Below are positions 1 through 1,560 of a DNA stretch of 64,000 bases, piece by piece. Origin of the DNA: Felis catus (lineage: Eukaryota). Position numbers and translations under genes: made by a program. Positions within the stretch are counted from its first letter, which is position 1; each line of letters opens with the position of its first letter. The stretch is taken from the NCBI RefSeq assembly GCF_018350175.1, contig NC_058368.1, forward strand, positions 97,900,001 to 97,964,000. Direction: 5' to 3'. The notes beneath the pieces were generated by a model. The model searched no databases. It was not told where the DNA came from and was given only the letters and a program-made list of their open reading frames with translations.

Positions 1-161
1 ATGTGTTCCACCTCACCATGGCTCAGTTGACGGGCATCGTGGAACCTGAGTGCACCCAGGAGGAGGAGGATGAGAACGAGGAGGAGGGGGAAGAGAAGCA
101 GGAAGAAAAGAACAAGAAGGAGCAGCCCGCGCAGGAGGACCCTCGTGTGAAGCGACCCTGA
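1..161 (+). CDS. FAM170A: FAM170A (ZNFD) 3' part of large coding exon, 5'-partial; ends at in-frame TGA 159-161
   Basis: Frame from base 3 reads VFHLTMAQLTGIVEPECTQEEEDENEEEGEEKQEEKNKKEQPAQEDPRVKRP*SQCPGCVFHSPKDN. This matches my recollection of the human FAM170A C-terminus (HVFHLTMAQLTG, acidic tract, WSQCPGCVFHSPKDRNS). It is not in the ORF track. Confidence 0.85.
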   Translation, partial: VFHLTMAQLTGIVEPECTQEEEDENEEEGEEKQEEKNKKEQPAQEDPRVKRP

Positions 162-205
162 AGCCAGTGCCCAGGCTGTGTGTTTCATTCTCCAAAGGAC
201 AACAA
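162..205 (+). other. FAM170A: Rest of the FAM170A exon after the premature TGA (formerly coding SQCPGCVFHSPKDN), ending at a splice donor
   Basis: The same frame still encodes the conserved tail; donor AA|GTGAGC at 205/206. Confidence 0.75.
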
Positions 206-514
206 GTGAGCTGGGGCTGAGCGTGTGAGGGCTCTGTGCCTTCTCCACAACACTCCTGTCTCTCCCATCCAGGCTCACGCCTCCAGAATGGAGAGTGGGG
301 GGTTTTGACAGCTCAGGGGACACCTTAAGGAGGGGGGGTGGGTGAGCGGGCCCCTTGCTTCTTGTCCAGGCATTTGATACAGTTATGACTGTCAGTGGGG
401 ATTTATCCCGAGCTTTTCAGCTCCCGCAGGAAGTCCTGCAAATTTCTGAGGGCTAACCGAGCACCTTTCCTCTTGAACCAAGAAGCGTCTTTCTCTGTTC
501 TGGTTTCCACACAG

Positions 515-573
515 CAGTTGAGATCCATGAGCCATAAATTCCTGGAAGACGGTGTGGCCTTCTTTTGGGAGAA
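515..573 (+). other. FAM170A: FAM170A penultimate exon carrying the ancestral stop codon (TGA 519-521)
   Basis: Polypyrimidine tract and acceptor ttccacacag|C. Splicing 205 to 515 gives AA|C AGT TGA (N-S-stop), like the recalled human ...RNS* end. Donor GAA|GTAAGT at 573/574. Confidence 0.75.
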
Positions 574-765
574 GTAAGTAAGGCCTGAGGTTGGTGTGGT
601 CTGAGCTGATGTCAGGGGGTCCCAGGGGAATCTAGGGGAAGGAATTACATGGCCACACTGGGTTACCTTGTGGCTCCGCAGTGGCATCAGCTTGTGTCAT
701 ACTCAGTGCGTCCAGGAAATTGATCTCCATTTCCTTAAGTGAGAAAGAATTGAAAAAAAATATCA

Positions 766-977
766 TTTTAGTTTGTAAAATTTATTTTGAAAGAGAGAGG
801 AGGTGGGAAGAGGCAGAGAGAGAAGGAGAGAGAGAGAGAGAGAGAGAAAATCACAAGCAGGCTCCTCACCATCAGCACAGAGCCTGACACGGGGCTTGAA
901 CTCACAAACCGTGAGAGCGTGACTTGAGCCAGAACCAAGAGTCGGATGCTCAACTGATGTAGCTGCCCAGGTGCCCT
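766..977 (-). mobile_element. Can-SINE (SINEC) in the last FAM170A intron
   Basis: Reverse complement of the tRNA-derived head (GGGCACCTGGG), (CT)n body and A-rich tail. Confidence 0.9.
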
Positions 978-1424
978 GAGAAAGTGAGAGTTTTGATTGG
1001 CATTTATTTCATTGACTGCATGACTGACCTGAGCTCTAAGAGCAAATACTGCCAGCAGCCCTTCTGGGATGAGAGCTCATTGCAACTTCAAGGGCTAGGA
1101 GTGGTCTGGAGAGAGGACATGGGGCCTAGCAGGACCAGAGGTTTGAGGTGTGAGAAACTTCGGCCAAAACCAGCAGAGGGCCCATGGATGTAGCCCTCTG
1201 GAAGAAAGCAGAGTGTGGAGGGAGAGAAACAAGGAAGTGAGCCCCCAAGAGATCTGGGAATATTCCAGAACCTTCCGTTTGCTATAGTAGGTCTGGAAAT
1301 AAACTCAGTGTGGTGTGTGTGGCTCTGAGCTTTAAGGCAAAGGTGAAGGGTCACCCTGGCTCACGGAGCTCACGTTCACTTCTTGTCTCTTCCTGTTCTG
1401 CCTTATGTGTTTAATCAATTCCAG

Positions 1425-1560
1425 GGAGAAGAAAGGATCCTGGGGATAGGAGCAGATAAAATGCCAATGATGTGAAGAAAGATGAAGGAACCGGCATTCA
1501 ATCTGGCATCACATGAAAATATAAATACCATATGCAATAAAGGCTGTTTTCCAAACCTTA
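1425..1560 (+). other. FAM170A: Probable FAM170A terminal non-coding (3' UTR) exon
   Basis: Pyrimidine-rich tract from 1375 ending ttccag|G at 1424/1425; AATAAA at 1536-1541. The 3' end is estimated. Confidence 0.6.
1536..1541 (+). terminator. Polyadenylation signal AATAAA of FAM170A
   Basis: Canonical hexamer about 110 nt into the putative last exon, followed by T/GT-rich sequence. Confidence 0.55.

Follow-up and report, generated by a model that had tools for sequence, protein, structure and literature searches.

In the domestic cat, the gene FAM170A, which encodes a sperm-chromatin protein, likely carries an old and tolerated truncation, produced by one ancestral TGG-to-TGA change, and its product, cut to 310 residues, is probably still made and functional. 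The window (the whole 64,000-nucleotide stretch of Felis catus DNA that we analysed) opens within the large coding exon of this gene. The frame at 3..158 (+) translates to an end ...DPRVKRP and then reaches TGA at 159-161. Behind this codon, the same frame spells SQCPGCVFHSPKDN before the GT donor at 206; the acceptor AG lies at 513-514, and the joined letters AA|C-AGT-TGA read N-S-stop, which places the old stop at 519-521. The TGA thus cuts off 17 codons, the Trp position included. Human FAM170A (NP_877438.2; P0197) has Trp at the position of the stop codon, then the same tail and the end ...KDRN, just as the first-pass annotation had stated. The meerkat and two hyena species also keep Trp at this position with the same tail, which bears out the proposed Trp-to-stop change with loss of 17 residues. 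Directly 3′ of the TGA is a 13-residue exact match to the tail of mammalian FAM170A, which is not chance.

Bases 1..158 hold the last 52 codons of the 310-aa felid FAM170A, which code for the last part of the zinc-finger helix and for the acidic tract; by analogy with mouse, the exon ending at 205 would be exon 3, and it begins upstream of the window. The 3′ end of the gene is laid out in Table 1. Window positions 511-521 contain a tandem acceptor, ACAG CAG (AG at 513-514 and 516-517), which would explain the one-residue end variants found among mammalian models (...RN versus ...RNS). By eye, the last intron also holds a SINE-like insertion with a GA repeat (770-980), and a TATC/TGTC microsatellite follows just beyond the poly(A) signal (1588-1630).

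Table 1. Layout of the 3′ end of FAM170A in the window.
Feature	Position	Strand	Evidence and remarks
FAM170A large coding exon, 3′ part	1..158	+	translation equals the C-terminus of P0007
TGA stop; Trp site of other mammals, end of the felid protein	159..161	+	unchanged in the spliced X18 and unspliced X16 contigs
Part of the 3′ UTR that was once the coding tail (SQCPGCVFHSPKDN and two more bases)	162..205	+	translation; CpG absent
Intron, GT..AG	206..514	+	X18 contig (depth 23.9) joins 205>515
59-nt exon with the ancestral stop (519-521)	515..573	+	ancestral stop 52 nt upstream of the last junction
Last intron, GTAAGT..CAG, within the 3′ UTR	574..1424	+	loose end of the X18 contig past 574 matches 1426 onward
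Last exon, non-coding, AATAAA at 1536-1541	1425..1560	+	110 loose X18 letters reach ~1535; exon end approximate

The identification of the gene as FAM170A stands, since the window protein clusters with named felid FAM170A. With mammalian FAM170A (ZNFD; human NP_877438.2, mouse Fam170a), the cat protein shares an N-terminal NLS, a central hairpin block, the PF17734 finger and an acidic tract, all within a spliced multi-exon gene, and felid proteins are 84-86% identical to that of the meerkat. Unlike other mammalian FAM170A, the cat protein ends at the Trp codon, its last 17 residues gone, and its stop lies two junctions before the end of the mRNA rather than one.

The short end is common to the felids. 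Among felid FAM170A records, 20/21 end at the stop codon and none has Trp: KRP is the end of 14 of the 15 members listed for the main cluster (20 members in all) and of 6/6 members of a second cluster. In one record of 326 aa (P0001), KRP runs straight into SQC without the Trp; we read this as a gene model that bridges the stop, giving a protein that the DNA would not encode. The records derive from 13 assemblies, in which Lynx rufus, Leopardus geoffroyi and Prionailurus viverrinus are the named species, with no big cat by name. In a tree of 14 felid and nine other carnivore proteins, the felids form one clade (100/99) whose inner order is mostly open; its stem measures 0.06 changes per site and its tips are short (up to ~0.02). 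This clade is sister to hyena plus meerkat, and by relationship to the named proteins the FAM170A of the window is the orthologue. The cat radiation is dated to ~10 million years, the linsang split to ~35 and the feliform sample to ~44 (PMC4084570). Given these dates, and because Trp is found in hyenas and the meerkat while the stop is found across felids, the stop likely predates the cat radiation and is some 10-40 million years old; the TGG-to-TGA change likely arose once, in the cat ancestor. The 310-aa short form is already in public annotation, and a literature search, whose coverage largely excludes subscription journals, found no paper discussing it in felids.

To describe the lost piece, 70 chosen proteins were aligned, of which 10 (3 felids, fox, 4 tail-less bats, porcupine and one corrected bat model) were dropped before counting, leaving 60 hand-picked tail-bearers. 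Mean column conservation was 0.914 over the 14 residues from Trp, a value inflated by the choice of tail-bearers, compared with 0.895 in the zinc finger and 0.675 in the acidic tract (n = 60). The best-kept tail residues are Ser, Pro, Phe and Ser (58-60/60), with the second Cys at 46 and the His at 50. The first-pass annotation placed a CxxC-xx-H motif in a conserved Cys/His tail, a description that the alignment does not support: the motif is intact in 35/60 tail-bearers versus 60/60 for the true zinc-finger ligands, Tyr, Phe or Trp often replaces the second Cys, and the His becomes Asp in muroid rodents. A zinc-binding Cys/His site was rejected on this lack of invariance, and by its residues the tail is hardly a metal site. 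A predicted complex of tail and zinc finger scored 0.01, which speaks for neither view.

The AlphaFold model of meerkat FAM170A is of low overall quality (mean pLDDT 48) and stays below 50 in the tail, with order only in the hairpin (129-141) and the finger. Two database proteins carry the tail in the +1 frame, and compared by hand they differ from the cat mostly at third positions; one of them (P0137) has five synonymous differences and one amino-acid difference. Because these off-frame reads imply mostly third-position changes, the constraint on the tail would act on the protein, and constraint at the nucleotide level was judged unlikely, on two sequences only. The best reading of the tail is a short linear motif under protein-level constraint: the tail would be disordered and the conserved short motif that cats lost in it is probably a partner-docking site, not a zinc site, and one that they can presumably do without. 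An ESM Atlas search with the tail gave no usable feature match (all TM <0.4), and a metagenome scan for mammalian DNA of relatives gave 44 pattern matches, 0 of them confirmed. Elsewhere in the protein, P0007 has the conserved stretches EYFSCVS (residues ~56-62) and SYKTCVS (~110-116), which we take to resemble FFAT-like VAP-binding motifs; a literature search for FAM170A with FFAT found 0 papers.

Most mammals keep the tail, as the first-pass annotation had assumed: of the 114 records with the finger motif among the best 120 of 276 matches, 87 have it (P0001 included) and 27 lack it. The larger tail-less groups are yangochiropteran bats (10), beaked whales (4), foxes (2) and Canis (2); the rest are one record each of felid, porcupine, tree-shrew, galago and a human splice isoform, two paralogue-like records and two unnamed ones. 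Models from beaked whales (marked 'partial'), tree-shrew and galago were not counted as losses, being possible annotation artefacts. FAM170A of Vulpes ends in ...DLGST while the raccoon dog keeps the tail; that of yangochiropteran bats ends in ...PTG or PTGN, with the tail kept in Rhinolophus; and that of Erethizon ends in ...KKPRS, with the tail kept in chinchilla. In each of these, as in the cat, the frame is open through the finger and acidic tract and ends within about ten codons of the Trp. Because the end codons differ and close relatives keep the tail, the losses in fox, bat, porcupine and cat would be separate events, as far as annotation models for Vulpes, yangochiropteran bats and Erethizon can be trusted.

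Two Myotis brandtii models from one assembly (P0155 and P0161) end in PTG and PTGN; judged from these proteins, the mutation behind the bat stop may also have created a splice donor that joins to the next exon. In Canis and Lycaon models (P0127, P0128, P0132, P0173-P0180), the zinc finger is skipped or broken and the frame is left in the acidic tract, with the raccoon dog intact; FAM170A may be disabled in dogs, a point of note, if true, in view of what its knockout does in mouse. Many FAM170A-like copies occur in Blainville's beaked whale (P0096, P0098, P0100, P0116, P0181-P0184), five of them listed on one contig, a pattern that suggests amplification. Dolphin and porpoise records (P0090, P0095, P0106, P0111) have an eroded tail, with the Trp gone and Tyr in place of the second Cys.

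In the proteins that retain it, the tail matches the zinc finger in conservation, which argues for a function in most mammals, so that its loss need not be neutral. If the loss matters, a needed partner-binding tail is gone and histone-to-protamine exchange is altered in all cats, which would either raise the baseline of abnormal sperm in the whole family or stem from an adaptive change. Conservation equal to that of the zinc finger, off-frame reads pointing to constraint on the protein, and the abnormal sperm heads of mouse Fam170a knockouts (PMC7401401, PMC11760970) all favor this account. Still, we consider it unlikely. The tail has been lost separately in foxes, many bats and the porcupine, and neither knockout paper, in the text accessible to us, tests the tail. 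Moreover, the stop is in all felid records, yet the available literature describes domestic cats of either kind, normospermic as well as teratospermic. The suggested link to teratospermia lacks support on the same point, because a family-wide stop cannot explain a difference between normospermic and teratospermic cats; an effect on the baseline of the whole family is conceivable.

The tail behind the felid stop looks undecayed. Against an inferred feliform ancestor, 2/16 tail residues have changed in the cat, compared with 21/303 in the body (Fisher p 0.32) and 14/133 in its weakly constrained parts (p 0.68), an estimate made at the protein level and from a single genome. Both tail changes fall in the variable last three residues. 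The core is unchanged (0/13), an outcome with a chance of 0.07-0.24 at these rates, which speaks to some extent against a simply tolerated truncation. CpG is absent from the 47 bases of stop and tail. The undecayed tail fits neutral drift, in which 16 CpG-free codons would change slowly over 10-40 million years. Because its changes do not differ significantly from those of the body and it has no CpG, the tail as it stands is a poor guide to how recent the stop is. In two bat models whose frame continues beyond the stop, 3/30 tail sites versus 67/220 weak sites differ from the consensus (p 0.018), although the bat counts are not independent and a tail that no longer aligned would give no model of this kind; a direct bat-to-bat test gave 3/15 versus 51/132 (p 0.26). 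Well-kept bat tails behind a stop likewise run against a tolerated truncation.

Both observations, an unchanged core of 13 codons in frame to the old stop and well-kept bat tails, would also follow if the stop were bypassed in testis by read-through, by A-to-I editing that turns UGA into UGI and so yields Trp, or by selenocysteine, leaving some full-length protein. This is very improbable. The majority FAM170A transcript, the X18 contig, is unedited at the stop, with A at 161, although contigs drop rare variants. CUAG is a read-through context and a 5′ G disfavors ADAR, whereas the sequence here is TGA-AGC, in which a G stands 5′ of the A at 161. Region 100-600 shows no better folding than shuffled versions of it (z 1.07), and Rfam gave 0 matches in the unspliced window, SECIS included. 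A selenoprotein was rejected on this absence of SECIS and because the homologous residue is Trp (52/60), not Cys.

Apart from the lost tail, felid FAM170A still looks under selection and functional. Among felids, 4/119 conserved columns vary compared with 22/191 other columns (p 0.011, computed without correction for codon mutability), where a conserved column is at least 90% conserved in other mammals and the felid set is 12 full 310-aa models together with what matches in two others. All five Cys/His of the zinc finger are kept in 16/16 felid records, and the NLS MKQRQKRK, encoded upstream of the window, is present in 12/12 full 310-aa models. The Pfam Spt46 match (PF17734) covers residues 218-264, well before the stop; the finger, largely encoded upstream of base 1, was checked on database proteins that share the C-terminus of the window. 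A second lesion is absent in 14/14 felid models. A spliced transcript is present in one run (X18, tissue unrecorded). With introns spliced, further lesions absent and conserved sites spared by variation, a pseudogene, processed or unitary, was rejected. The PF17734 match corresponds to the zinc finger described in PMC7401401. The one mapped element is the N-terminal NLS, to which USP7 nuclear import was assigned (PMC11760970). In the accessible text of PMC11760970, there is no test of the FAM170A C-terminus ('C-termin', 0 matches), and the C-terminal mentions found in that of PMC7401401 concern a FLAG tag.

The distance to the last exon junction is 103 nt from the felid stop and 52 nt from the ancestral one. 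From distance alone, felid FAM170A is predicted to fall under EJC-dependent NMD (stop >50 nt before the last junction). The source of the 50-nt rule consulted here describes junction-dependent, EJC-stimulated decay as rare or absent after meiosis (PMC5803779), and frameshifted mouse Fam170a mRNA was upregulated, not lost (PMC7401401). The FAM170A mRNA would survive if, as these papers suggest, junction-dependent NMD is weak in post-meiotic germ cells, which is likely why a spliced transcript assembles.

We give very little credence to felid FAM170A being a dying gene, its mRNA decayed, or a dead duplicate with an intact copy elsewhere. The distance of the stop, past the 50-nt rule, and the apparently more broken FAM170A of wolf-like canids are what such an account can draw on. 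As to synteny, we take HSD17B4 and PRR16 to be the neighbors of FAM170A; no neighboring gene was found in the window, which has ten stop-to-stop ORFs of at least 130 aa. (A spotted-hyena FAM170A record, P0142, is named 'DHB4 enzyme', probably the label of the neighboring HSD17B4.) Against a dying gene are the full-length spliced transcript (depth 23.9), the lack of a second lesion, and variation that avoids conserved sites; against a dead duplicate, neither the best 120 of 276 matches nor the listed cluster members include a felid copy with Trp.

The TGA is also supported by sequencing runs. In 14 runs from 5 studies, every one of the 64 words sampled from bases 1-620 was present, with a chance of ~3%, if word sampling is random, that no sampled word covers base 161. 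Four runs were aligned to bases 1-760, and two (X18 and X16) cover the stop. X18 gave a 1374-nt spliced contig (depth 23.9) that retains TGA, has 0 other letters over 1-205 and 515-574, joins 205>515 as GT..AG, and has room for the whole coding sequence plus a leader of ~227 nt. X16 gave an unspliced contig, also with TGA and with one difference, at window position 133, where A-to-G (Gln to Arg) is a polymorphism or marks a close relative. Raw RNA runs X21 and X24 contributed 1 read and 8 reads, respectively, each a low-complexity match within 53-104 and none reaching the stop. The first-pass annotation had offered a recent mutation, a polymorphism or a base-call error, explanations at odds with a stop that the felid records of 13 assemblies share and that a spliced transcript carries. 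A base-call error or a recent polymorphism of one individual or species has almost no probability left: its one support is the intact-looking tail, and although contigs show presence only, so that a rare TGG allele is compatible with runs and contigs, the same protein end recurs across the 13 assemblies and three named genera and the same stop in the words of 14 runs and two contigs.

Lineage-fixed shifts of stops near gene ends are a known kind of change. The cheetah offers a likeness, with premature stops in fertility genes and so nonsense in felid sperm genes (bioRxiv 10.1101/2024.04.26.591110; PMC13478778). Those stops are described as species-specific and tied to bottlenecks, whereas the FAM170A stop is common across cat lineages; 'FAM170' has 0 matches in the main text of both papers. 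The FAM170A stop is the normal felid allele and is not to be scored as deleterious in cat or cheetah fertility studies. On a broader reading, which we think unlikely, the tail is a so far undescribed docking motif by which histone-to-protamine exchange is tuned; its convergent loss in cats, foxes, yangochiropteran bats and the porcupine would have come about through stops in the same ten-codon window, wolves would have gone further through a disrupted zinc finger, and the felid mRNA would be under NMD outside spermatids. If the docking reading is true, the tail-less lineages are natural deletion experiments on sperm-head packaging. Repeated loss of one motif marks a part of the protein worth a second look, and a tail so strongly conserved yet repeatedly lost, in a gene needed for mouse sperm-head shaping, makes a cheap structure-function test.
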